NCBI GenBank assembly: GCA_965262615.1
Contig: OZ253545.1
Span: 736,001-800,000 of the forward strand
Direction: 5' to 3'
Source of the DNA: Alphaproteobacteria bacterium
GTDB taxonomy: Bacteria; Pseudomonadota; Alphaproteobacteria; GM7ARS4; G965262615
DNA length: 64,000 nt
The position numbers and the translations under genes are program-made. Numbering within the stretch: position 1 is the first letter of the stretch; each line of letters begins with the position of its first letter. This document shows positions 1,453 through 12,482 of this stretch, in pieces. The notes under the pieces are model-generated. The model was not told the origin of the DNA. It saw only the letters and a program-made list of their open reading frames with translations, and did not search any database.

Positions 1453-3873
1453 CTAATGGGTTAGGGGTGTTTTGTCACCTCTTTGCGTCATATTTTTTTC
1501 TTGCCGAATGGCGATGGATGATGTCTCATCGTGCTGCCACGGCTCTCTTTTTGTGGGCATATGAATCAAAGCCAGAGGCAACACCTCATGGGCATTTTTG
1601 ACAGGAATGATTTCAAGAGCATTCTTCACCTTATCGGGAATCTCTTCCAGATCCTTAATATTGTCGTGGGGGATAATCACCTTTTTGATGCCACCGCGCA
1701 GTGCCGCCAGCATTTTCTCCTTAAGACCGCCAATGGGCAGCACTCGTCCGCTCAGAGTGATCTCTCCCGTCATGGCGGTGTGGCGATCAACGGCAATGGA
1801 AGTCAGAGACGAGACGATGGAGCAATAGATGGCAATGCCCGCCGACGGACCATCTTTTGGTGTCGCTCCTTCGGGAACATGCAGATGAATATCCTGTTTG
1901 TCAAAGAGGGCGGCATCAAGGTTGAGGTCGCTCGCTCGAGCCCGCACGAAACTGATCGCCGCCTGCACCGACTCTTTCATGATGTCACCCAGTGTTCCCG
2001 TGTAATGATATTTGCCCTTGCCCGCCATGATGACGGTTTCCACCGACAGCAAATCGCCGCCGTTTTCCGTCCACGCCAAACCTGTGGTGACACCAATGAG
2101 ATCGTTATCACTCACACTGCCATAGCGAAAACGCAGCACACCGGCATAGTCTTTGAGGTTGTCCTGGCGAATATCAACGCGGGTTGTTTGTTCCTCTTGC
2201 ATCAATTGGCGCACCGCCTTGCGCGCCAGCTGGGCACATTCGCGTTCTAAATTACGCAAGCCGGCTTCGCGCGTGTAGCGTCTGATGAGGGTCAAGATTG
2301 CCTCATCGGAGACATTCCATTCGTCTTCACTCAAGCCATTGTCCTCACGCTGCTTGGGCAACAGATGGCGTTTGGTAATTTCTAATTTTTCGTCTTCGGT
2401 ATAGCCGGAGATTCGCAAGCACTCCATGCGATCCATCAACGGCTGCGGCATATTGAGGGTGTTGGCTGTGGTGACAAACAACACATCGGACAAATCATAA
2501 TCCACCTCCAAATAGTGATCATTGAAGGCTTTGTTTTGTTCAGGATCTAACACCTCCAGCAAAGCCGATGCCGGATCGCCGCGCCAGTCAGCACCAATTT
2601 TATCCACCTCGTCAAGCAAAAACAAAGGATTGGAGTGCTTCGCCTTCTTCATTCCCTGAATGATTTTTCCCGGCAGTGAGCCAATATAAGTGCGGCGATG
2701 CCCTCTGATTTCCGACTCATCTCGCAAGCCGCCCAAAGACATCCGTACAAAAGGACGCCCCGTTGCACGGGCAATGGATGCCCCCAAAGATGTCTTGCCA
2801 ACGCCAGGGGGACCCACAAGGCACAAGATGGGCCCCTTCACCCTTTTGGTTTTAATCTGCACCGCAATGAATTCCAAAATGCGTTCTTTGATTTTTTTCA
2901 ATCCATAATGATCGGCATCAAGGATTTTTTCCGCCTCGTCCAGTGATGTTTGAATGGCTGAGGGATTGCGCCACGGCAACGACACCAGCCAATCAAGATA
3001 ATTGCGAGAGACATTGGCTTCTGCCGACATGGGACTCATGCTTTTGAGTTTCTTCATCTCTTGGTGTGCCCGCTCACGGGCTTCTTTGGTGAAGCGCGTC
3101 TTTTTGATTTTCTTCTCCAGCTCATCCATATCGTTGTGTCCGCCCTCGCCATCGCCCAATTCTTTTTGAATGGCTTTCATTTGTTCGTTGAGATAGTATT
3201 CCTTTTGCGTTTTATCCATCTGATTTTTCACGCGACCGCGAATGCGTTTCTCCACCTTGAGGACAGCGATTTCATTCTCCATCAGTTCATAGATTTTCTC
3301 CAGCCGTTCGGTGACCGACACCGTCTCCAGCAACGCCTGTTTATCCTGAATGGACAGCATCAGATTCGCGGCGATGGTGTCTGCCAGCTTGGATGGATCT
3401 TTCACCTGACTGAGTGCGTTCAAAATATCCACCGAAATCTTTTTATTAAAACGCAGATAGACGCTGAATTGATGCAGCATTGAGCGCGTGAGTGCCTGTA
3501 ATTCATGACCACTGTGTTCAGAGCCCGCCAGAGGTTCGGTGTCGGCTTCAAAAAATTCTTTGCGCCCACTGAATTCCTTGACCCGATAGCGAGTCAAACC
3601 CTCCACCAACACCTTCACCGCCCCATCGGGCAGCTTCAGCAATTGCAGAACCATGCCCAAAGTGCCGACATGATACATGTCCTCGTGGCGAGGTTGATCG
3701 TCGGAGGCATCTTTTTGTGCCAACAGCAAAATGCGCTTGTGACCCTTCATCACCTCATCAAGAGCCTTGACAGACCGCACCCGTCCCACAAACAACGGAA
3801 CAATCATATGAGGAAAGACAACCACATCTCGCAATGGCAACACCGGATAGCGATTGTCAGAGGCATCGGTCAT
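1453..3873 (-). CDS. lon: Lon protease
   Basis: PVLPLRDVVVFP, GPPGVGKTS Walker A, PKDGPSAG catalytic Ser, IGGLKEK. Confidence 0.99.
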   Translation of the reverse strand: MTDASDNRYPVLPLRDVVVFPHMIVPLFVGRVRSVKALDEVMKGHKRILLLAQKDASDDQPRHEDMYHVGTLGMVLQLLKLPDGAVKVLVEGLTRYRVKEFSGRKEFFEADTEPLAGSEHSGHELQALTRSMLHQFSVYLRFNKKISVDILNALSQVKDPSKLADTIAANLMLSIQDKQALLETVSVTERLEKIYELMENEIAVLKVEKRIRGRVKNQMDKTQKEYYLNEQMKAIQKELGDGEGGHNDMDELEKKIKKTRFTKEARERAHQEMKKLKSMSPMSAEANVSRNYLDWLVSLPWRNPSAIQTSLDEAEKILDADHYGLKKIKERILEFIAVQIKTKRVKGPILCLVGPPGVGKTSLGASIARATGRPFVRMSLGGLRDESEIRGHRRTYIGSLPGKIIQGMKKAKHSNPLFLLDEVDKIGADWRGDPASALLEVLDPEQNKAFNDHYLEVDYDLSDVLFVTTANTLNMPQPLMDRMECLRISGYTEDEKLEITKRHLLPKQREDNGLSEDEWNVSDEAILTLIRRYTREAGLRNLERECAQLARKAVRQLMQEEQTTRVDIRQDNLKDYAGVLRFRYGSVSDNDLIGVTTGLAWTENGGDLLSVETVIMAGKGKYHYTGTLGDIMKESVQAAISFVRARASDLNLDAALFDKQDIHLHVPEGATPKDGPSAGIAIYCSIVSSLTSIAVDRHTAMTGEITLSGRVLPIGGLKEKMLAALRGGIKKVIIPHDNIKDLEEIPDKVKNALEIIPVKNAHEVLPLALIHMPTKREPWQHDETSSIAIRQEKNMTQRGDKTPLTH

Positions 3874-3911: not shown

Positions 3912-5171
3912 TCAGCTGGCTTGTCTTTGTGTGTCGGCATAGATGTGCAAAGGTTCCATCGCTCCTGTGACCACATCCTCATTGACAATCACGCGATTCA
4001 AGGATGGCAAGCTGGGCATTTCAAACATGGTGTTGAGCAGTATTTTCTCACAAATAGAATGCAGGGCACGGGCACCTGTTTTGCGCTCATAGGCCTGATG
4101 GGCGATGGCGCGCAGAGCCTCATCGGTGAAGATCAGCTGCACACCATCCATCTCAAAGATGCGTTTGTATTGGCTGATGAGCGCATTCTTCGGCTCGGTC
4201 AGAACGCGCACCAGCATGTCTTCGGTGAGTTCATTGAGAGAGGCAATGACGGGCAGGCGTCCGACAAATTCAGGAATCAAGCCATAGCGAATGAGATCTT
4301 CGGGCTCTGCCGCATGCATCAAAGGCGTGATGGCATGATGGTCATCAGGCGCATGCACCGATGCACCAAAGCCCATGCCGTTCCCCTTGATGCGATTCTG
4401 CACCAATTGATTCAAACCCGCAAACGCCCCACCACAAATGAACAAGATGTGGCGCGTATCCACTTGCAGAAATTCTTGTTGCGGGTGCTTGCGTCCGCCC
4501 TGAGGGGGAACGCTGGCAATCGTCCCTTCCATCAGCTTGAGCAGTGCCTGCTGCACGCCCTCGCCAGACACATCGCGCGTGATGGAAAGATTATCCGCTT
4601 TGCGGCTGATTTTATCCACCTCGTCAATATAGACAATGCCGCGCTGGGCTCGCTCCACATTGTAATCGGAAGCTTGCAGCAGTTTGAGAATAATATTCTC
4701 AACATCTTCGCCCACATATCCCGCCTCGGTCAGGGTGGTGGCATCCGCCATGGTGAAGGGGACATCTATGATGCGAGCCAGCGTCTCCGCCAGCAATGTT
4801 TTGCCACTGCCCGTCGTGCCGATGAGCAGAATGTTGGATTTGCTCAAATCGTCATCATGATCCTTGACGCCATGCTCAATGCGTTTGTAGTGATTATACA
4901 CCGCCACCGATAACACACGCTTGGCTTGATCTTGTCCGATGACATAATCATTGAACTTATTGTAGATTTCTTTGGGTTTGGGCAGTTGTTTTTTGGGCGT
5001 TTTTCCCGTTTGTTTTTGCTCTTCTTTGAGGATGTCCATGCACAGTTCAATGCATTCGTTGCAAATCATCACGCTTGGACCGGCAATCAGCTTGCGCACA
5101 TCATGCTGATTTTTGCCGCAAAAAGAGCAGTGCAGGTGTTTTTCTTTGGATGTTTGACTGTTTGATGTCAT
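3912..5171 (-). CDS. clpX: ATP-dependent Clp protease ATP-binding subunit ClpX
   Basis: CSFCGK..ICNEC zinc finger, [25 protein letters not shown]. Confidence 0.99.
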
Positions 5172-5232
5172 AACCCTGTAGCCAAGCGATGTTGAACATA
5201 AATGTCAAGTGAATTTTTCATTCTTTTATGAA

Positions 5233-5886
5233 TTACCACAAAGCAGGTTTTTTTATCACAATAGGGTCTGGCAATTGGGAATTAGCAAACAATTGCATCC
5301 TGTCTTCTATAATAATCTCATCGTCTGCATGACTCTTAAGATTTTTCACAGCTTTTCCTCCCCTTGGATTGAAAAGAACGACCTCTTTATATTCTTTGAC
5401 AATCTTCAAAGCTCCCGTAAAATCACTATCATTGGATACAAGAAGAACGCAATCATGGTTTTGACACAAAGCATCTTTGACCATGGCCACGGCTAAATTA
5501 ACATCTGTTTGCTTTTCTTCTATATTGAAAATCTTTACATCATCCCCGTCTGTCGTGATAGCTGGTTTTTCTCTGCAGGAAATTTTTCCCTTTATTATTT
5601 CCAATTGAGGCACATGTATCCTGAGTGCCTTTAAGTAACATCTTTGTCGTTCTTCAACTTTCTTAGCTTCTCTTCTCTCATCATCAGTCTTTAGCTGAGC
5701 AATATAAACATCAGGTTTGACTTGGACAATAGAAGTAAAGTACTTAACTGCGATTATATCATAGTTATCCTGCGTTGCTTTCATTAAGTTGTCAGCGAAA
5801 GCACCCAAATCAAGCCATTTGTGTTGGGTTTTCTTTAAGGCATAATACAAGTTAAGCCCGTCAATATAGACAATTACTTTTTTCAT
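5233..5886 (-). CDS. NYN-domain (LabA/DUF88, PIN-like) ribonuclease, copy 1
   Basis: VYIDGLNLYY, EEKQTDVNLA, LVSNDSDF acidic motifs; C-terminal SQLPDPI..KPxxW; AT-rich; start taken at MKKVIV. Confidence 0.9.
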   Translation of the reverse strand: MKKVIVYIDGLNLYYALKKTQHKWLDLGAFADNLMKATQDNYDIIAVKYFTSIVQVKPDVYIAQLKTDDERREAKKVEERQRCYLKALRIHVPQLEIIKGKISCREKPAITTDGDDVKIFNIEEKQTDVNLAVAMVKDALCQNHDCVLLVSNDSDFTGALKIVKEYKEVVLFNPRGGKAVKNLKSHADDEIIIEDRMQLFANSQLPDPIVIKKPALW

Positions 5887-5897
5887 TAGGTAGCACC

Positions 5898-5969
5898 AAA
5901 AAACCGCGGGGTTGACTGAAAGCCAACCCCGCTTCACCCTACGGTCTAAGCCGCTACGGGCTACAGTTA
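5898..5969 (-). ncRNA. Putative leader RNA ending in an intrinsic terminator, upstream of NYN copy 1
   Basis: Starts TAACT 6 nt after a -10; ends in GCGGGGTTGGCT-TTC-AGTCAACCCCGC hairpin plus T6; same layout as 7822-7875. Confidence 0.6.
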
Positions 5970-5975
5970 ACTATA

Positions 5976-6003
5976 AGAATAGGCTTTCTTATGGTTCTGT
6001 CAA
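5976..6003 (-). promoter_or_regulatory. Sigma70-like promoter TTGACA-16-TATTCT overlapped by an inverted repeat
   Basis: Minus strand TTGACAgaaccataagaaagccTATTCT; AACCATAAGAA/TTCTTATAGTT inverted repeat. Confidence 0.6.
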
Positions 6004-6020
6004 CCCCCGCTTTGAGTTTT

Positions 6021-7556
6021 TTATACATCTTCTTTTTTCTCTCGCAAGGGTCGTTTGCGAAAAACGAGGGCGGTGGTCATGTGATTGAGGTGAATGGTGC
6101 TGCTGCCGTCTAAATCGGCGATGGTGCGGGCGACTTTGATGGCGCGCGTCCATGCGCGCGCCGATAGATTAAACCGTTCTGCCGATTGTTGCAAAAAATC
6201 CCGAGCATCATCGTTCATCGTTGCGATGCGCTCCAGTGCGTCCCCTTCGGCTTCGGCATTGCAGTGAAAGGGCAAGTCCAATTGCCGAAAACGCGCCGCC
6301 GCTCGTTCTCGTGCCGCCATGACTTGAGCTCGCATTTCCCCACTGCCTTTGCCCACCCGCGCGCCCATGAGATCGCGCGCCTCCACTTTGGGAACATCAA
6401 GAATCACATCAATGCGATCATAAAGAGGCCCCGATATTTTGTTTTGATAATCAATCGCGCACTGCGGCTTTTTGCGGCAATCGCAGTCATCGTCAAAATA
6501 CATACCGCAGCGACACGGATTCATCGCCGCAATCAATTGAAAGCGAGCGGGATAGCTCACATGAGCATTGGCGCGAGCAATCATGACCTTGCCGCTCTCC
6601 AACGGTTGACGCAACGCCTCCAGCGAGGCGCGGTTGAATTCGGGCAGTTCATCCAAAAACAAAACGCCCTTGTGACTGAGGCTGATTTCACCGGGTTTGG
6701 CTCGGACGCCGCCTCCCACCAAAGCGGGCAGTGATGCCGAATGATGAGGCGCACGAAAGGGACGAACACGACTCAGCGCGCCATCTTTGATGAGACCCGC
6801 CACCGAATGAATCATGCTCACTTCCAAAATCTCATCGGATGCCAGAGGCGGCAGCAACGAGGGCATGCACGATGCCAACATGGATTTTCCCGCGCCAGGC
6901 GGTCCAATCATGAGCATGTGATGTCCTCCCGCCGCCGCAATGGTGAGGGCTTCTTTGGCGCTTTCTTGTCCCTTCACATGCCGCAAATCCCGCTCATAAA
7001 GGGGATGCTCATCGGTGAGAACGGGCTCAGGCGCAGTGAGCAGCTGGGTGCCGCGCATGTGATTGACCAACGCCATCAAACTGTGAGGCGCAAGAATGGA
7101 GATGCTGCCACTGGCAGCGGCGGCTTCACTGCCGCAATCATGAGGACAAATCAAACCGCGTGTCGTCTGTGCGGCAAATAGTGCTGCGGGCAAAACGCCA
7201 GACACGGGAAGGATGCGTCCGTCCAGTGACAATTCACCCAAAGCGACAAAGTCATCAATATCGCCCACTGATATAATCTCCATCGCCTGCAGCAGAGCCA
7301 GGGCGATGGGCAGATCGTAATGACTGCCCTCTTTTTGCATGTCGGCGGGCGCGAGATTGATGGTGATGCGCTTTGGCGGCAATCCCAAGCCGATGGCGAC
7401 CAGTGCGGCGCGCACCCGCTCTCGTGATTCGGCAACCGCTTTGTCTCCCAATCCCACGATGGAAAAAGCAGGCAAGCCCGATGCCATTTGTGCTTGCACA
7501 TCCACCGCCTCTGCATCAATGCCTCGAAAGGCGACTGTTGATACCCGTGCCACCAT
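6021..7556 (-). CDS. comM: YifB/ComM Mg-chelatase-like AAA+ ATPase
   Basis: VAESRERVRAA, INLAPADMQKEGSHYDLPIA, GPPGAGKSML, RAPHHSAS, LFLDELPEF; start taken at MVARV. Confidence 0.95.
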   Translation of the reverse strand: MVARVSTVAFRGIDAEAVDVQAQMASGLPAFSIVGLGDKAVAESRERVRAALVAIGLGLPPKRITINLAPADMQKEGSHYDLPIALALLQAMEIISVGDIDDFVALGELSLDGRILPVSGVLPAALFAAQTTRGLICPHDCGSEAAAASGSISILAPHSLMALVNHMRGTQLLTAPEPVLTDEHPLYERDLRHVKGQESAKEALTIAAAGGHHMLMIGPPGAGKSMLASCMPSLLPPLASDEILEVSMIHSVAGLIKDGALSRVRPFRAPHHSASLPALVGGGVRAKPGEISLSHKGVLFLDELPEFNRASLEALRQPLESGKVMIARANAHVSYPARFQLIAAMNPCRCGMYFDDDCDCRKKPQCAIDYQNKISGPLYDRIDVILDVPKVEARDLMGARVGKGSGEMRAQVMAARERAAARFRQLDLPFHCNAEAEGDALERIATMNDDARDFLQQSAERFNLSARAWTRAIKVARTIADLDGSSTIHLNHMTTALVFRKRPLREKKEDV

Positions 7557-7637
7557 AACGGCGCACAGTATCATGACCATCAAAGACACGCAACAAAGGC
7601 GAGGGAGCCGTTTGTGAACTTTGAAAAAACAAAGGGG

Positions 7638-7677
7638 TTTGAAAAGTCTTGACAAGATGTTTCAAAAGCTCCACCCT
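7638..7677 (+). promoter_or_regulatory. 29-bp palindromic operator overlapping a TTGACA -35 element
   Basis: TTTGAAA-AG-TCTTG-A-CAAGA-TG-TTTCAAA; weak -10 CACCCT 17 nt downstream of TTGACA. Confidence 0.5.
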
Positions 7678-7682
7678 ATCCA

Positions 7683-7753
7683 CAGCATTGTCTGCGTGAT
7701 TCGCTCCGTGGACAGGGGTGGGGGACTTAATTGCCCCCACCCTCTCGTTTTTT
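7683..7753 (+). ncRNA. Candidate two-hairpin small RNA
   Basis: TGTCTGCG/CGTGGACA stem (G-U pairs form on + strand only), then GGGGTGGGGG/CCCCCACCCT stem and a T tract. Confidence 0.4.
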
Positions 7754-7787
7754 ATCTTTGAGATGGGAAAGAAGTTTAGATAAGTTG

Positions 7788-7816
7788 TTGACAACGGGAG
7801 GAAGAAGTGCTACATA
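7788..7816 (+). promoter_or_regulatory. Sigma70-like promoter TTGACA-17-TACATA
   Basis: Perfect -35, 17-nt spacer, TG upstream of the -10. Confidence 0.6.
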
Positions 7817-7821
7817 CCGTG

Positions 7822-7875
7822 TAACTACACCCTTTGGGGCAGCGGGTTCTCTCTTTGGGAGAACCCGCATTTTTT
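7822..7875 (+). ncRNA. Putative leader RNA ending in an intrinsic terminator, upstream of NYN copy 2
   Basis: TAACT start, CCC-TTTG-GGG mini-stem, GCGGGTTCTCTC-TTT-GGGAGAACCCGC hairpin plus T6. Confidence 0.6.
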
Positions 7876-7888
7876 GTTTTTGAACATC

Positions 7889-8569
7889 ATGAAAACAATC
7901 GTCTATATTGATGGCCTAAATTTGTATTATGGGGCTTTGAAAGACACTCCATACCGTTGGCTTGATTTGAAGCTTTTATCCCAAAACTGGCTACAAAAAA
8001 CAAAGTACAAACAGTGCGACATTGTTGCCGTTAAATACTTTACCTCTCGTGCTATTGAGAAACCCCCTATTGTGCAAAATCAACAGAGCAGACAAAAACA
8101 ACGCTCAGATTTGCACAATAGGCTCGCACAAAAAAGGCATTTGGCTGCGTTAGAGTCTCACATTGAGGGATTGGAAATTATTTATGGAACTCATGTTCAG
8201 CACACCGCTTATGCTTATGCCAAGGAAACGGGAAAAAGAATTGAAATCTATAAAATTGAAGAAAAAGAAACGGATGTGCATTTGGCGTGTTCTCTTTTGA
8301 ACGATGCCTATATGGATTGTTATGACTGTGCTGCCGTCATGACCAATGATACCGATATAGCCCCTGCCCTTGCATTCATCAAAAAGCACCATCCTCATAA
8401 AAAGGTGATTATCTTAAATCCGTATATCTCTGAAAAAAGAGGAACGGCACAAAAGCTTGCAGAGAATTGCACTTCCTATGCCAAAATTCGCAAGTCGGTT
8501 CTTGCTCAATCCCAATTACCCGACCCCATTCCCAACACGAAATTGCACAAGCCAAAAAGATGGGGATGA
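7889..8569 (+). CDS. NYN-domain (LabA/DUF88, PIN-like) ribonuclease, copy 2
   Basis: VYIDGLNLYY, EEKETDVHLA, MTNDTDI, C-terminal SQLPDPIP..KPKRW; start taken at MKTIV. Confidence 0.9.
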   Translation: MKTIVYIDGLNLYYGALKDTPYRWLDLKLLSQNWLQKTKYKQCDIVAVKYFTSRAIEKPPIVQNQQSRQKQRSDLHNRLAQKRHLAALESHIEGLEIIYGTHVQHTAYAYAKETGKRIEIYKIEEKETDVHLACSLLNDAYMDCYDCAAVMTNDTDIAPALAFIKKHHPHKKVIILNPYISEKRGTAQKLAENCTSYAKIRKSVLAQSQLPDPIPNTKLHKPKRWG

Positions 8570-8650
8570 ATTGTATATCGCTTGCGGAAATTATGGTGTT
8601 CTCACGCGAGGCATCATAAAGACGCGAGCCATAGGACAAGCATGAAAATG

Positions 8651-10708
8651 TCAGTTTTTACGGTCGCAATCTGTGCCAATGAAAAGAAGGGCTTTTTTAG
8701 CTTCCTTGCTTTCAAACCTTAAATCCCATCGTTTTTCCATAAAATCCAACAAGAGAAGACCGCGTTCTTCAATAGCCTCAGGTGTCCATTCTTCATACTT
8801 ATGAGCGACCTCAATTTCTGAATGTGACCCGTCTGAGTAGCCATTTCTGGTTTTTGTGCCAGCACCGTTGGTTCTTGGCTTTTTCTTGTCAGCAAAATCA
8901 GCATTCTGCAAAGAGCTGTTAATGGACATTGACAAAAGCAGCAAGTTTCCTATAGAGCCACTGTAAAATGGATATTTTTCCTCATCTACTGATGCAAAAA
9001 AGCTCTTCCAGCCATTTGTAGGCGTTTGAGGAAATATATGCTCTATAGACACCTTATCTTTAGGCGTTTTAAGCAAATCTTCCCACACTGGTTCTTTTTT
9101 CTGCCTATTTTGTGACAGTAAATCAAGCTCATATTCGTACAAGAAATAACGCAACCCATTCCAGCCATAGTAGCCGTTTTTGTCACCACTATTGAAGCGT
9201 TTGTCAATATGGTTGTAGAAATACTTGGAATTAAACGCGCCGTCACCATGAAAGAAGTCTTTCATCGCAGCATCCAGCTTCTGCTTAATTTTTGACAATG
9301 TGAGTTGCCCCCAATTTAATTCGCGTGATGCACTGTAAAATTCGCTGTCTCTGTAATTGCCGCGAACCTGACTCAAGCGAAAAACAATGAAGATAAACCG
9401 TTCTATATGCTTGAGGAGGTCTATCCTTTTTTCGGGGCTACTTTCATTCTTGAATAGAGACATTATCAGAGGTCGGAAATATCCAATTCCGATTCTGATC
9501 AGACAATTAAGGGCATTTTTTTCGTCACCTGATAATCCTGTTGCCAAATCAGGGTAGTGAGAATTGAACCAATGAACAGCTGACTCTTTTAGACTATCCA
9601 CATAATCCCTGATTTCATTTGGTGGCAGATAATCTGCCATGATGCCATCCTCAGCACTGCCATCATCACTATCTGAACGATGCTCTTCCTCATTTTTTTT
9701 ATGAATTCTCTGCGGCGAAAACTGCTCATCAAGCAAGAATCTAGTGTAGGCGTTGCCCCTTCTCCTTGAATATTGAAAATACATAATCCAATGGTCTTTC
9801 AGAAAATCATCATCATTTAATGGTCGTTTATCATTGCGACCAAGCTGGCGATACACTTCTTTCCAAGCACTATTTATTGCATCTCTGAGACTTTTACGCT
9901 CTGATGCATCCAGATCGTCTTCGGTGTAAAGTGTTGTCAGGTAAATCAAGCGGTTCTTGAGCAGCTCCAAATCAGACAAGCGTTTTCCGCGATTATTCAT
10001 CGTTTCAAATGCAACAAAAACATCAAACTCATCCTTAATCACATACTCGTTAAATAAAAACTTCTTTGTGATCTTTTTGTAGATTTTTTGCAGACCATCA
10101 GTGCCATATTTAGCATATAGCCCTTCCAGCTGCCCATCAAAATACAGTTTTGCATTTCGTAAATTTAAAGTGTAAAAGGTTTCCTCCATAGACGGAGAAC
10201 CATTTTCGTTGAAAATTTTATACCGAAGATATCTATAGCTTGGGTTGTCTTCCATATAGCCAAATTTATAGGTGCGATACCTATCACCTCTCGGCTTTGT
10301 CATAAACAAATAATTTTTTATGACTTCTTCTAAGTGGATGTTTTCCGTAATATAAATTTCACTATTTTCTCTTCCATCGTTTTCATCCTGCCTCTTTACA
10401 ACATTAATAAGGGATTGGAGAAAAATCACAAAAGTGGTCAGGCGTTGCTGACCATCCACTATGTGGCACATTTTGTATGAATATTCATCCACCAGCCAAT
10501 GCTCATAGCTAGTTTCTGCTACATCATTTGGATCGACTTCTTTCAAAGTAAGCACGCCAGTATAATGCGAGCGATTACTAGGTAGATTTATGAGGTCTTC
10601 CCAAAAGTCCTTAAAATGGCTTTCTTGCCAAGCATAACCGCGCTGATAATCAGGAATTCTGAATATCCTTTCCTTAAAGAGACTATCCAATGACTTCAGT
10701 TTATCCAT
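8651..10708 (-). CDS. DUF262-DUF1524 fusion (GmrSD-like type IV restriction endonuclease)
   Basis: IPDYQRGYAW, VDGQQRLTT, FETMNNRG, IEHIFPQ, GNLLLLS..NSSLQN motifs; low GC. Confidence 0.88.
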   Translation of the reverse strand: MDKLKSLDSLFKERIFRIPDYQRGYAWQESHFKDFWEDLINLPSNRSHYTGVLTLKEVDPNDVAETSYEHWLVDEYSYKMCHIVDGQQRLTTFVIFLQSLINVVKRQDENDGRENSEIYITENIHLEEVIKNYLFMTKPRGDRYRTYKFGYMEDNPSYRYLRYKIFNENGSPSMEETFYTLNLRNAKLYFDGQLEGLYAKYGTDGLQKIYKKITKKFLFNEYVIKDEFDVFVAFETMNNRGKRLSDLELLKNRLIYLTTLYTEDDLDASERKSLRDAINSAWKEVYRQLGRNDKRPLNDDDFLKDHWIMYFQYSRRRGNAYTRFLLDEQFSPQRIHKKNEEEHRSDSDDGSAEDGIMADYLPPNEIRDYVDSLKESAVHWFNSHYPDLATGLSGDEKNALNCLIRIGIGYFRPLIMSLFKNESSPEKRIDLLKHIERFIFIVFRLSQVRGNYRDSEFYSASRELNWGQLTLSKIKQKLDAAMKDFFHGDGAFNSKYFYNHIDKRFNSGDKNGYYGWNGLRYFLYEYELDLLSQNRQKKEPVWEDLLKTPKDKVSIEHIFPQTPTNGWKSFFASVDEEKYPFYSGSIGNLLLLSMSINSSLQNADFADKKKPRTNGAGTKTRNGYSDGSHSEIEVAHKYEEWTPEAIEERGLLLLDFMEKRWDLRFESKEAKKALLFIGTDCDRKN

Positions 10709-10797
10709 AACACTCTATACTCTAAACATTTATTCCTTCATGTGCAATCTATTTTATGGTAAGTGGATTCGGGGCGAAATTGCCGTTTTTTCATCTT

Positions 10798-11730
10798 TTA
10801 TGTTATTTTTTGCCAAAAAATCTCAGCCCCATTGATTCCACTCAGTTGCAACAGGGTGACCAATCCGGTGGGTGAGGTGACATTGATTTCGGTGAGATAA
10901 TCACCGATCACATCCAACCCCACAAAGAACAATCCGTGCTGCCGCACAAACGAACGCACCGTTTTGACGATGGCATCATCCTCTGGCGTGAGCTCATAAG
11001 GAATCGCCGTGCCGCCGCGCGCGAGATTGGCGCGTCCGTCACCAGCAGACGGCAGACGGCTGAACGCTCCCACCGCCTCGCCATCAATCATGATGATGCG
11101 TTTGTCGCCGCTTGATTCAATGGCGGGCTCATAGCGTTGCACCATCACCGCCGTGCCATAGGATTGCACGAGGGTATCAAAAGCCGCCACGCCGTTGGCA
11201 TCATCGGGCGCAATGATAAAAATGCCTGCGCCGCCCTTATCATGCAAAGGCTTGAGAACCACCTTGCCATGCGCCGCGCGAAACTCCTCATAGAGTGTGA
11301 CATCGTGTGTGACCAGTGTGGGCGGCATCAATGATGGAAAAAAACACGCCGCCAATTTTTCAGGACAATTGCGCACCCCCACAGGGTCATTGATGATGCG
11401 AATGGAAGGATGATTTTTCTGCAACGCCTCCAGTAGCCATGTTGCCGTCAGATACGCCATGTCAAAAGGCGGGTCTTGCCGCAACAAAATGACATCACTG
11501 CGATGAAGGGGCAACACATAGGAAGATGAGGCGCGCCATTGTTGCTGCGTGTCATCAAAAGCGAGGTCACACCCGCGCGCATTGAGCTCGCCATCGCGCA
11601 TGGTGAGGTGCTGTGGCTCATAGGAGAAAAAAGTCGCATCACTTCGCCCAATGTGTTTGAGCAAAAACAGCGTGGAGTCGGTCTCATGATTGAGCCGCGC
11701 CAGACAATCCATTTGCACCGCCACCAACAT
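10798..11730 (-). CDS. gshB: Glutathione synthetase
   Basis: RQDPPFDMAY, RNCPEKL, GDKRII, RANLARGG, EINVTSPTG. Confidence 0.96.
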   Translation of the reverse strand: MLVAVQMDCLARLNHETDSTLFLLKHIGRSDATFFSYEPQHLTMRDGELNARGCDLAFDDTQQQWRASSSYVLPLHRSDVILLRQDPPFDMAYLTATWLLEALQKNHPSIRIINDPVGVRNCPEKLAACFFPSLMPPTLVTHDVTLYEEFRAAHGKVVLKPLHDKGGAGIFIIAPDDANGVAAFDTLVQSYGTAVMVQRYEPAIESSGDKRIIMIDGEAVGAFSRLPSAGDGRANLARGGTAIPYELTPEDDAIVKTVRSFVRQHGLFFVGLDVIGDYLTEINVTSPTGLVTLLQLSGINGAEIFWQKIT

Positions 11731-12482
11731 TAAAAATCAATCCGTTTGAGAACAGCCTCAGGCAGGTGACCAATCACCATCATAATCCACCGCCAGTAAT
11801 GGGGATAGTAGAGCACATTTTTTTTGCGCCGCCACGCTTTTTTGATGGCGCGGGCTAAATCTGCGGGATGTGCCACAGGAGTCGCTGTCGCTAAGTTCCA
11901 TGTCATGGAGCTGTCAATGGGACCCGCTTTGACGGTCAAAACGGGAATGGCATGAGGATGCAAGCGGGCGCGCAGTCCTTCCAAATAAACCGAGACCGAT
12001 GCCTTCGCCGCGCCATAAACATAATTGCTGGGCTTGCCGCGATCCCCCGCCACCGATGAGAGAACCGTCAAAGACCCCCCGCCGCGCTGTTCCAATGTGG
12101 CGGCAAAACAATGCAACAATGCAATGAGAGACGAGCCATTGGTTTGCAGCGTTTGGGTGAGCAGAGCGGCATCATCATTGAGGTCGCGTTGGCTGGGCAT
12201 CGTGCCGATGGCACAAAAAATGTGCATGGGCTGCTTGCCTAGCAGACGGCAACATTGATTAACGAGTGCGGCGTGCTGGTCATGATGCAACACATCGCTG
12301 GTCATGATATGAGTCTTGGCATGGGTGCGCAGTGTGAGGTCTTGACCAATGACGGTGAGGTCGTCCGTGTCTCGTCCCACAAGAATGATTTTTTGTTGCG
12401 GCTTGGCAATGGCAAAGGCAAACGCGCGCGCAAGCGGTGAACTCGCGCCCAGTATAATCCATCCGTGTGCGGCGGTGGTCAT
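11730..12482 (-). CDS. Short-chain dehydrogenase, DprE2-like
   Basis: ILGASS, SSVAGDRGKPSNYVYGAAKA; ATGA-coupled to the DprE1-like gene. Confidence 0.82.
   Translation of the reverse strand: MTTAAHGWIILGASSPLARAFAFAIAKPQQKIILVGRDTDDLTVIGQDLTLRTHAKTHIMTSDVLHHDQHAALVNQCCRLLGKQPMHIFCAIGTMPSQRDLNDDAALLTQTLQTNGSSLIALLHCFAATLEQRGGGSLTVLSSVAGDRGKPSNYVYGAAKASVSVYLEGLRARLHPHAIPVLTVKAGPIDSSMTWNLATATPVAHPADLARAIKKAWRRKKNVLYYPHYWRWIMMVIGHLPEAVLKRIDF

Follow-up and report, generated by a model that had tools for sequence, protein, structure and literature searches.

Type III toxin–antitoxin (TA) modules, namely ToxIN, CptIN and TenpIN, consist of a promoter, a structured RNA, an intrinsic terminator and an endoribonuclease gene. 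Their antitoxin takes the form of tandem 34-36-nt repeats, which the toxin excises, and the modules are patchily and horizontally distributed, residing in prophages and defence islands as well as on plasmids. In E. coli, the ribonuclease genes rne, rnc and pnp carry structured autoregulatory 5' leaders that limit their expression.

Among proteins, the nearest described relative is HEC-09 (Hma-embedded candidate 9, PADLOC-DB PDLC04163), a candidate defence gene whose product has a MARF1-like NYN domain with conserved aspartates (10.1101/2024.01.29.577857). In that preprint, a representative cloned with ~150 bp of native upstream DNA did not protect against the phages it was challenged with, and IPTG toxicity is noted in the methods for HEC-03 and HEC-04 alone (10.1101/2024.01.29.577857). 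Similarly, a second preprint is reported to pair a Clostridioides difficile AbiF-type system with a regulatory RNA (10.1101/2025.04.15.648962), likewise a defence/toxin gene with a dedicated ncRNA, from an unrelated protein family. The 2017 PIN-superfamily classification lists bacterial NYN proteins as "function unknown."

Here, we compare these systems with two loci in a 64,000-nt window from an alphaproteobacterial genome (GCA_965262615.1, contig OZ253545.1, positions 736,001 to 800,000). Two NYN genes, NYN-A and NYN-B, each follow a promoter, a two-hairpin RNA (hairpins P1 and P2) and a terminator (Table 1). A sequence-only reading of the window had proposed this layout, and both direct reading and a terminator scan bear it out. 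The identical P2 geometry claimed for the two copies (12-bp stem, 3-nt loop, T6 and an ATG 11-13 nt on) also stands, and each P2 contains one G-U pair that fits the sense strand.

Table 1. Features of the two NYN cassettes and their surroundings (window positions).
Feature	Positions	Strand	Details
Promoter A	5976..6003	-	-35 TTGACA 6003-5998, 16-nt spacer, -10 TATTCT 5981-5976
RNA A, ~70 nt	5898..5970	-	5' tail UAACUGUAG, P1, junction UGAA, P2, GG, U6
UAACU of RNA A	5969-5965	-	
P1 of RNA A	5960-5937	-	interrupted 8-bp stem closed by CCC...GGG, loop CUUAGA
P2 of RNA A, terminator hairpin	5932-5906	-	GCGGGGTTGGCT-TTC-AGTCAACCCCGC; 12 pairs, loop 3
T6 of RNA A	5903-5898	-	preceded by GG after P2
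NYN-A, 217 aa, HEC-09-type NYN ribonuclease-like protein	5233..5886	-	Pfam NYN, E 3.4e-12; PADLOC HEC-09 (PDLC04163), E 7.9e-35, full length; ATG at 5886, 11 nt past U-run
Promoter B	7788..7816	+	-35 TTGACA 7788-7793, 17-nt spacer, extended -10 TG-c-TACATA 7808-7816; read from sequence
RNA B, ~55 nt	7818..7875	+	5' tail UAACUACA, short P1, junction CA, P2, A, U6
UAACU of RNA B	7822-7826	+	
P1 of RNA B	7830-7839	+	CCC-UUUG-GGG; much shortened
P2 of RNA B, terminator hairpin	7842-7868	+	GCGGGTTCTCTC-TTT-GGGAGAACCCGC; 12 pairs, loop 3
T6 of RNA B	7870-7875	+	preceded by A after P2
NYN-B, 226 aa, HEC-09-type NYN ribonuclease-like protein	7889..8569	+	Pfam NYN, E 5e-7; PADLOC HEC-09 (PDLC04163), E 5.3e-36, full length; ATG at 7889, 13 nt past U-run
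Possible degenerate gene-less third unit, uncertain	7680..7753	+	8-bp hairpin, UUCG in loop; GGUGGGGG-loop-CCCCCACC, U6; TTGACA upstream at 7649-7654
GmrSD-type restriction enzyme gene	8651..10708	-	Pfam GmrSD_N E 4.8e-30, GmrSD_C E 8.7e-18; context only

Cassette A lies between comM and clpX, where NYN-A stands alone at a G+C content of 0.36-0.40 against ~0.53 in the surroundings. Promoter A matches the consensus at 10/12 positions in the promoter/terminator scan and starts 18 nt after the comM stop codon (6021). That interval holds no terminator, so P2-A must also end comM transcripts. NYN-B shares a low-G+C island (0.34-0.43 over 7600-10800) with the GmrSD gene and lacks a clear Shine-Dalgarno sequence; its promoter was missed by the consensus scan because the -10 element lacks the final T. 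The possible third unit folds better than expected (z -3.0), but its match to covariance model R2, described below, is merely 7.2 bits (E 0.58), which is at noise level. Flanking direct repeats, sought around cassettes A and B, were not found.

The two NYN proteins are 39% identical to each other, and a metagenome scan for their relatives returned none closer than 39% identity. The AlphaFold2 model of NYN-B (pLDDT 92) finds its best Foldseek matches in 2qip and the MARF1 NYN domains 5yaa and 6fdl, and the acidic residues D8, E124, E125, D129, D154 and D156 are invariant in 22 NYN sequences. Relative to the 150-residue MARF1 NYN domain, the protein adds a long helix (68-91), a beta-hairpin (101-126) and a conserved C-terminal tail, SQLPDPIP..KP..W. 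For the window proteins, Pfam, PADLOC and NCBIfam yield NYN and HEC-09 only, with no membership of ToxN, CptN or TenpN; NCBIfam gave nothing useful, and PHROGs returned phrog_7929 alone, of unknown function. Full-length profile matches and the NYN fold thus place both in the same family as HEC-09, whereas the window copies sit outside Hma or any other multi-gene system. The sequence-only reading knew of no described NYN/LabA system of this kind. This needs amending for the protein, already a PADLOC candidate, and holds for the RNA as far as the main text of the HEC preprint goes, in which "ncRNA" and "non-coding RNA" occur 0 times each (10.1101/2024.01.29.577857).

We then examined NYN loci from other genomes, comprising 80 genome loci, 32 of which served as model seeds, and 80 independent metagenome loci. 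A conserved leader, anticipated from the window copies, is clearly present: the two-hairpin RNA lies directly upstream of NYN on the same strand at 69/80 genome loci, across many phyla, and at 62/80 metagenome loci (E <= 0.0013 in 60 of these; median gap 14 nt). Another 17 of the 80 metagenome loci had no match; some of these are visibly related AT-rich variants, and six carry a different hairpin. In the seed of 32 other-genome leaders, 93.6% of cells are paired versus 76.4% in shuffles and 40-55% in slid controls, with compensatory changes in 17/19 pairs; 0/500 shuffles reached the observed values. Covariation was also strong across 84 matches (94.3% paired; covariation score 0.582 versus 0.211, 0/500 shuffles as high). 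Many G-U pairs are compatible with the sense strand only. A candidate attenuator or riboswitch switch, pairing the 3' strand of P1 with the 3' strand of P2, is unsupported; this one helix showed no covariation, and 380/500 shuffles scored as high.

An intrinsic terminator between RNA and NYN is found family-wide, although some copies from plasmids and actinobacteria have a weak one or none. Conservation also covers elements that termination does not need, namely P1, the UUCG loop and the 5' CCCC. A sigma-70 promoter with at least 9/12 matches precedes 78/121 distinct leaders versus 17/605 controls, and its -10 element ends 0-4 nt before the model start in 65 of those 78. Within 10 NYN-bearing genomes, all 16 matches at E <= 1e-3 adjoin NYN genes or remnants. 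RNA copies also occur beside decayed NYN genes (L063, L100, L204, L207, L218 and L220), a persistence that may merely reflect the small mutational target of the RNA.

Rfam 15 at gathering thresholds detected three tRNAs only in the window and, at 20 loci with strong copies, only tRNAs and one tmRNA; when one strong copy was scanned by E-value, the best match was isrB, whose 18.5 bits fall short of the threshold of 35. In the literature, including that on NYN/LabA, RNA antitoxins and candidate structured RNAs, we found no paper describing an NYN-linked RNA, supplements apart. Weinberg et al. 2017 (PMC5737381), for example, mention NYN, LabA and DUF88 0 times in their main text, although the supplements may list motifs. 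Overall, this is a large, structurally conserved, uncatalogued RNA family coupled to HEC-09-type NYN genes in many phyla, on plasmids and in a prophage.

The window RNAs belong to this family as diverged members, judging from their model scores. Covariance model R2, trained on other genomes only and searched unfiltered over 4000-12000, placed copy B first (7818-7875 +, 26.0 bits, E 5e-7) and copy A second (5899-5970 -, 14.8 bits, E 0.0019), with the next match at 10.5 bits. The earlier model R1, under default filters, detected copy A (12.3 bits, E 0.094) but not copy B; over the window's own genome it gave noise-level matches (best E 0.026), copy A ranking sixth. Both leaders out-fold their shuffles (z -2.7 for A and -3.8 for B; 0/200 shuffles as good). 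We consider it very improbable that there is no dedicated element, that is, that ordinary terminators or a DNA repeat or recombination site lie near NYN by chance. The double duty of P2-A at the end of comM and the resemblance of weak model matches elsewhere to ordinary terminators would suit such an account, but copy B has no upstream same-strand gene to terminate, the cassettes lack flanking direct repeats, and chance would not explain the covariation, the promoter at a fixed distance, the G-U pairs that fit one strand or the conservation across the family.

The order of genes is not always tandem. In 13 loci the RNA is convergent with NYN: 12 are actinobacterial genome loci, in which it occupies the other strand, immediately next to the stop codon of NYN, and one is a mycobacteriophage prophage (Mycobacterium phage prophiGD43A-1, 53.1 bits). 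The actinobacterial convergent RNAs have their own -35/-10 elements (e.g., TTGACA-N17-TATCAT) and compensatory changes. In four further loci the RNA is divergent from NYN. The coupling of RNA and NYN therefore survives rearrangement, and because the RNA is separately promoted in the 13 convergent and four divergent loci, these orders give new support to an RNA that acts in its own right rather than solely as a leader.

These loci bear on a purely cis-acting leader, in which the hairpins would throttle NYN because transcription stops early and a stable hairpin sits at the start codon. NYN might, in a variant of this account, cleave or bind its own leader, so that autoregulation results and the released RNA is functionless. 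The dominance of the tandem order (69/80 and 62/80 loci) is what such a leader predicts, as is the U-run 11-14 nt from the ATG, which makes NYN dependent on read-through; two strong orphan RNAs before unrelated small genes also sit as a portable expression module would. We nevertheless regard it as unlikely, since the 17 RNAs off the NYN mRNA keep structure, conserved bases and promoter, the conservation of P1, of the UUCG loop and of the 5' CCCC exceeds what termination needs, and the one antiterminator pairing examined finds no support. The rne, rnc and pnp leaders, moreover, lie always within the mRNA and have no terminator, whereas the NYN-linked RNA ends at its own terminator and is outside the NYN transcript in 17 loci.

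We favor an RNA that works on the protein, and the candidate module is best read as a type III-like pair of RNA and RNase. A strong sigma-70 promoter would fire a 55-70-nt RNA that is nearly all P1 and P2, the latter being the intrinsic terminator. The NYN start, 11-13 nt past the U-run, leaves no space for a separate NYN promoter; the mRNA of NYN would thus arise by read-through only, and the small RNA would be made in excess. The RNA probably keeps the putative NYN nuclease in check, binding and restraining it as the RNA antitoxin of a type III TA or abortive-infection system would, and in the tandem order its terminator may also throttle transcription into the NYN gene. For the window, we tentatively interpret each NYN gene as a self-contained, horizontally acquired module whose RNA is a working partner that most likely binds and restrains the candidate nuclease, a reading to which we give slightly less than an even chance.

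Measured against type III TA, the sequence-only proposal of a type III-like system holds in part. The promoter-RNA-terminator-RNase order is real and conserved, the RNA is likewise expected in excess over toxin mRNA, and both kinds of module share their settings (plasmids, prophages, defence islands) and a patchy horizontal spread. The repeat array and a ToxN/CptN/TenpN-type toxin are absent; instead, the NYN RNA consists of one self-terminated two-hairpin unit of 55-70 nt, the protein has an NYN/PIN-like rather than a ToxN/AbiQ-type fold, and the RNA gene may be convergent or divergent. Several observations count against an antitoxin. The RNA does not come in repeats, NYN has no kinship with the established type III toxins, and the HEC-09 clone gave no phage protection (10.1101/2024.01.29.577857). 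The 17 metagenome loci lacking a match, the RNA matches away from NYN described below and an E. coli plasmid copy lacking a U-run weigh in the same direction.

A trans-acting RNA might alternatively be a cofactor, activator or substrate of NYN, as in an RNP enzyme in which the RNA would position or license the nuclease, or a sensor RNA that would signal infection when lost or cleaved. Coupling that is independent of gene order would agree with any trans role, and in the structural model the extra helix, beta-hairpin and C-terminal tail could hold an RNA. We judge this account distinctly improbable: the RNA loops are mostly stable tetraloops with nothing resembling a variable guide, the terminator puts the RNA in excess over NYN mRNA, which better suits an inhibitor, and RNA copies outlast dead NYN genes. 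The restraining RNA may, more broadly, define a new RNA-protein TA or abortive-infection class, in which a single non-repeated two-hairpin RNA, made in excess, neutralises an NYN-fold ribonuclease in more than 12 phyla, on hundreds of plasmids, 3.5-kb E. coli plasmids among them, and in prophages, in tandem, convergent and divergent orders; we advance this possibility with a little more reserve than the reading of the window itself.

A dedicated, conserved partner RNA would provide a concrete, testable mechanism for bacterial NYN (PF01936) proteins, which clustering at 50% identity resolves into 1469 groups at E <= 1e-30 and into 5787 at E <= 1e-10. If true, RNA-antitoxin systems would no longer be confined to the three known toxin families or to repeat arrays. 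Such a partner might also account for the HEC-09 clone without a phenotype, since that construct probably carried its own brake.

Finally, searching for the RNA first, in 150 genomes of the phylum and in that of the window (E <= 1e-4), gave 14 matches. Two precede intact NYN genes and one an NYN 5' remnant. Two strong orphans (66 and 59 bits) stand before unrelated small genes, one encoding an XRE-type HTH protein; one match (45 bits) sits behind rplS as a plain terminator would; and eight weak matches (28-34 bits) resemble ordinary terminators. The RNA module is therefore also found apart from NYN, and below ~35 bits the model loses its specificity. Only L078 and L105, among the 160 loci, carry two-unit RNA arrays under one promoter. 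The NYN gene occurs in just 1/40 relatives, and 449 plasmid records carry it, including plasmids of 3.5-5 kb. The copy on a 3.46-kb E. coli plasmid has no U-run, and the presence of the module on such small E. coli plasmids makes it testable in standard laboratory strains.

The small RNAs ahead of the two NYN genes of the window (RNA A with NYN-A, RNA B with NYN-B) belong to a new, widespread and structurally conserved family of two-hairpin RNAs. Promoter, RNA, terminator and NYN gene, as the sequence-only reading had described them, were all recovered at the same positions in both cassettes by sequence inspection, a terminator scan and folding. In each copy, the second, terminator hairpin (P2) has 12 pairs, a 3-nt loop and T6, and lies 11 nt (A) or 13 nt (B) before the ATG; the P2 stems differ in sequence, and each contains one G-U pair that is compatible with the sense strand only. 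Promoter A starts 18 nt past the comM stop, so P2-A must terminate comM transcripts too, and the window annotation has no same-strand gene upstream of copy B.

Features around the two NYN cassettes, in window coordinates
Feature	Position	Strand	Remark
lon	1453-3873	-	
clpX	3912-5171	-	
NYN-A	5233-5886	-	passes Pfam NYN
RNA A and promoter A	5898-6003	-	
comM/yifB-type Mg-chelatase-like ATPase	6021-7556	-	
Intergenic stretch	7557-7787		
Additional two-hairpin unit	7649-7760	+	possible decayed copy
Promoter B and RNA B	7788-7875	+	
NYN-B	7889-8569	+	passes Pfam NYN
GmrSD-type nuclease gene	8651-10708	-	

G+C falls from a background of about 0.53 to 0.36-0.40 at 5200-6000 and to 0.34-0.43 at 7600-10800, and both cassettes therefore look acquired. 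The source genome (1.54 Mb, one contig) has only these two NYN copies, whose proteins share 39% identity, and a homologue was found in 1 of 40 relatives searched. The GmrSD-type (BrxU-like) restriction enzyme gene occupies the same low-G+C island as NYN-B, with which it forms a small defence islet adjoining comM. Just 5' of cassette B, an additional unit combines a promoter-like TTGACA, two hairpins (UUCG in the first loop; second stem GGUGGGGG/CCCCCACC) and U6; it scores only 7.2 bits against R2, one of two covariance models of the RNA, and could be a decayed, gene-less copy of it.

The predicted structure of NYN-B (pLDDT 92) has the LabA-like protein 2qip and the NYN domains of MARF1 as its closest folds, and the acidic residues do not vary across 22 sequences. 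PADLOC assigns both proteins, over their full length, to the candidate defence family HEC-09. In the preprint in which HEC-09 was defined (10.1101/2024.01.29.577857), whose main text mentions no RNA, one representative was placed under an inducible promoter together with roughly 150 bp of its native upstream sequence, and it gave no protection against the phages tested.

A protein search returned 690 relatives of about 207-226 aa. Among 1.84 billion cluster representatives, a profile search picked up 1469 family clusters at E <= 1e-30, rising to 5787 at E <= 1e-10. Our first set comprised 80 loci, drawn from species-representative genomes across many phyla, with record titles naming Alpha-, Beta- and Gammaproteobacteria, Desulfobacterales, Nitrospinota, Acidobacteriota, Planctomycetota, Chloroflexota, Actinomycetota, Bacteroidota, Gemmatimonadota, Armatimonadota, Verrucomicrobiota, Bdellovibrionota and others. 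A conserved leader among homologues, named by the sequence-only reading as a check on its claim, is indeed present: the 140 nt 5' of the starts of these 80 loci share, almost throughout, a sigma-70-like promoter, ACNNCCCC, the first hairpin P1 (usually capped by UUCG), GGG-YGC, GRGGCC-loop-GGCCYYUGC, a U-run, about 10-25 nt and the ATG. At L078 and L105, a single promoter is followed by two RNA units in tandem.

Covariation supports both hairpins. In a seed alignment of 32 leaders, window copies excluded, 93.6% of cells were paired versus 76.4% in column shuffles, and 17 of 19 pairs had changed on both sides; none of 500 shuffles reached the observed values, and slid controls were 40-55% paired. 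An alignment of 84 hits, which favours the structure because it was fitted to the model, had 94.3% of cells paired and a covariation score of 0.582 versus 0.211 (0 of 500 shuffles equally high; 2 of 500 for pairs changed on both sides). The one antiterminator helix considered, between the 3' strands of P1 and P2, showed no covariation (380 of 500 shuffles equally high). Scans of the window and of 20 loci with strong copies against Rfam 15 returned no matching family, and no description of the RNA was found in the literature searched, which for the two papers of greatest relevance covered the main texts.

Counted from the NYN genes, the RNA is near-obligatory beside those of the HEC-09 type. 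Models R1 and R2 were built from other genomes, leaving out the window copies. In the 80 genome loci, 32 of which were seeds of R1, this model found the RNA in tandem upstream of NYN at 69, convergent at 6 and divergent at 1, with a median RNA-to-NYN gap of 11 nt; of the four misses, L079 and L082 are cut by contig ends, and L033 and L055 have related-looking hairpins by eye. A set of 80 metagenome loci (29-39% identity to the window proteins) is independent of the model, since R2 was built from genome-set hits, and here R2 gave 62 tandem upstream, 0 convergent and 1 divergent match. Sixty of the 62 had E <= 0.0013, and the other two E 0.045 and 0.63. Among the 17 misses, six carry by eye an AT-rich version of the design, ACUCAYCC-P1-GGGCGAAAARACCGCC...GGCGGUUUUUU (L137, L153, L165, L166, L171, L173), and because the models miss this variant, the family is wider than their counts suggest. 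Four more show other two-hairpin variants, and six have in place of the two-hairpin RNA, about 60-100 nt 5' of NYN, another conserved hairpin whose loop reads GATRCTATC (L157, L160, L169, L177, L178, L182).

Run unfiltered over window positions 4000-12000, R2 placed copy B at the top (26.0 bits, E 5e-7), followed by copy A (14.8 bits, E 0.0019). Across five complete NYN-bearing genomes, each of the 10 R1 matches at E <= 1e-3 adjoins a NYN gene or NYN fragment, except for one that adjoins a decayed remnant recognised by eye; in five actinobacterial genomes, all six R2 matches adjoin NYN genes. Some cassettes adjoin tRNA or tmRNA genes (L022, L004, L064), the first of these also with a P4-type integrase-like ORF and a second RNA copy without a gene, a setting that points to integrative islands as carriers.

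The RNA has its own promoter and terminator. Within 45 nt upstream, 78 of 121 distinct tandem leaders match the sigma-70 consensus at 9 or more of 12 positions, as against 17 of 605 positions drawn at random from these loci; the exact TTGACA is present in 38 of the 78. The -10 element ends 0-4 nt before the first position of the model in 65 of the 78, which places the start site a few nucleotides 5' of the C-run, at the foot of P1, so that the released RNA would be little beyond P1, P2 and the U-tail. The median distance from U-run to ATG is 11-14 nt, too short for the NYN gene to have a promoter of its own.

This RNA is kept in three gene orders: tandem, convergent and divergent. At six first-set loci (Solirubrobacterales, Acidimicrobiales), it lies on the opposite strand directly past the NYN stop and reads towards NYN. 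When 301 genomes of that actinobacterial class were sampled, 27 had the NYN gene, and 30 loci were fetched from the class. The model matched 19 (7 tandem and 1 weak tandem, 8 convergent, 2 divergent, each next to a truncated NYN gene, and 1 fragment left unclassified); the 11 unmatched loci are weaker NYN matches. The 12 distinct convergent loci, when aligned, keep P1 and P2 with compensatory changes, and upstream of their RNAs are -10-like and often -35-like elements (TTGACA-N17-TATCAT at L054). A convergent pair also lies between the integrase and immunity repressor of the Mycobacterium phage prophiGD43A-1 (53.1 bits).

This arrangement bears on the possibility that the RNA is only a leader acting in cis on NYN expression. 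At 13 convergent loci the RNA forms no part of the NYN mRNA and ends at its own terminator short of the NYN gene, so a purely cis role cannot explain its retention there, and we regard that reading as unlikely overall. These loci share a protein sub-clade (C-terminus SQFP...) and may stem from few rearrangement events, and for this reason they are not independent trials.

We tentatively favour, at a little under an even chance, a type III-like reading in which the RNA works with the NYN nuclease as a separate molecule and most likely restrains it. The RNA would be made in excess from its own promoter and terminator, and it is placed where the RNA antitoxins of type III toxin-antitoxin systems sit, which is why restraint seems the most likely effect. 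In the tandem order, NYN expression would additionally be throttled by the terminator and by the hairpin that adjoins the start codon. The module falls outside the known type III families, as it lacks an RNA repeat array and its nuclease differs in fold from their toxins; these differences lower "is a type III" and not "works like type III". That the RNA is instead a cofactor or substrate of NYN appears improbable.

Counted from the RNA, the coupling is not exclusive. R2 gave 14 matches at E <= 1e-4 in 150 genomes of the window's phylum and the source genome: two 5' of intact NYN genes (L222, L225) and one 5' of a NYN 5' remnant (L220). Two strong orphan copies (L221, 66.3 bits; L223, 58.8 bits) precede unrelated small genes; two ORFs there were compared with Pfam, of which one matched no family and the other is an XRE-type HTH. 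Their surroundings, by eye, are rich in type II toxin-antitoxin-like ORFs (RelB/DinJ-, MazF- and DUF433-like). L224 (44.7 bits) lies directly 3' of rplS, as a normal terminator would, and lacks a promoter; it is a recruited copy or else a terminator that resembles the RNA by chance. The other eight (27.9-33.6 bits) resemble ordinary terminators, and no NYN gene lies within 1.5 kb of them. Thus nearly every NYN gene of the clade has the RNA, orphan RNA modules exist, and R2 lacks specificity below about 35 bits when whole genomes are scanned. That the RNAs are at large ordinary terminators or DNA-level elements is very improbable, and falls within a small remainder that also covers readings we have not thought of.

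RNA copies also stand beside decayed NYN genes (L063, L100, L204, L207, L218, L220). L063 (G045, 3904961-3906207) has three tandem repeats of the RNA with the NYN 5' end, and its full-length NYN gene contains two in-frame TAG codons. Such persistence fits antitoxin-like retention, and may only reflect a small mutational target.

Homologues occur in 449 plasmid records, including 3.5-5 kb plasmids of E. coli, Serratia, Salmonella and Aeromonas and many Klebsiella plasmids. R2 matched upstream of NYN on a Leptospira plasmid (45.5 bits), a 4.6-kb E. coli plasmid (30.4 bits), the 3461-bp E. coli plasmid NZ_CP091696.1 (L234; 27.5 bits, no U-run) and, weakly, a Klebsiella IncR plasmid (16.5 bits). 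By eye, the L234 leader (3061-3200, -) has two tandem motif units behind one promoter, TTGCAA-N17-TATAGA; a VbhA-family antitoxin gene is also present on this plasmid. Some homologues on Pseudomonas and Klebsiella plasmids (H31, H33, H35) are annotated as 6-hydroxy-3-succinoylpyridine hydroxylase (NicB/HspA), a name that is hard to square with the fold of a NYN nuclease and probably reflects propagated misannotation.
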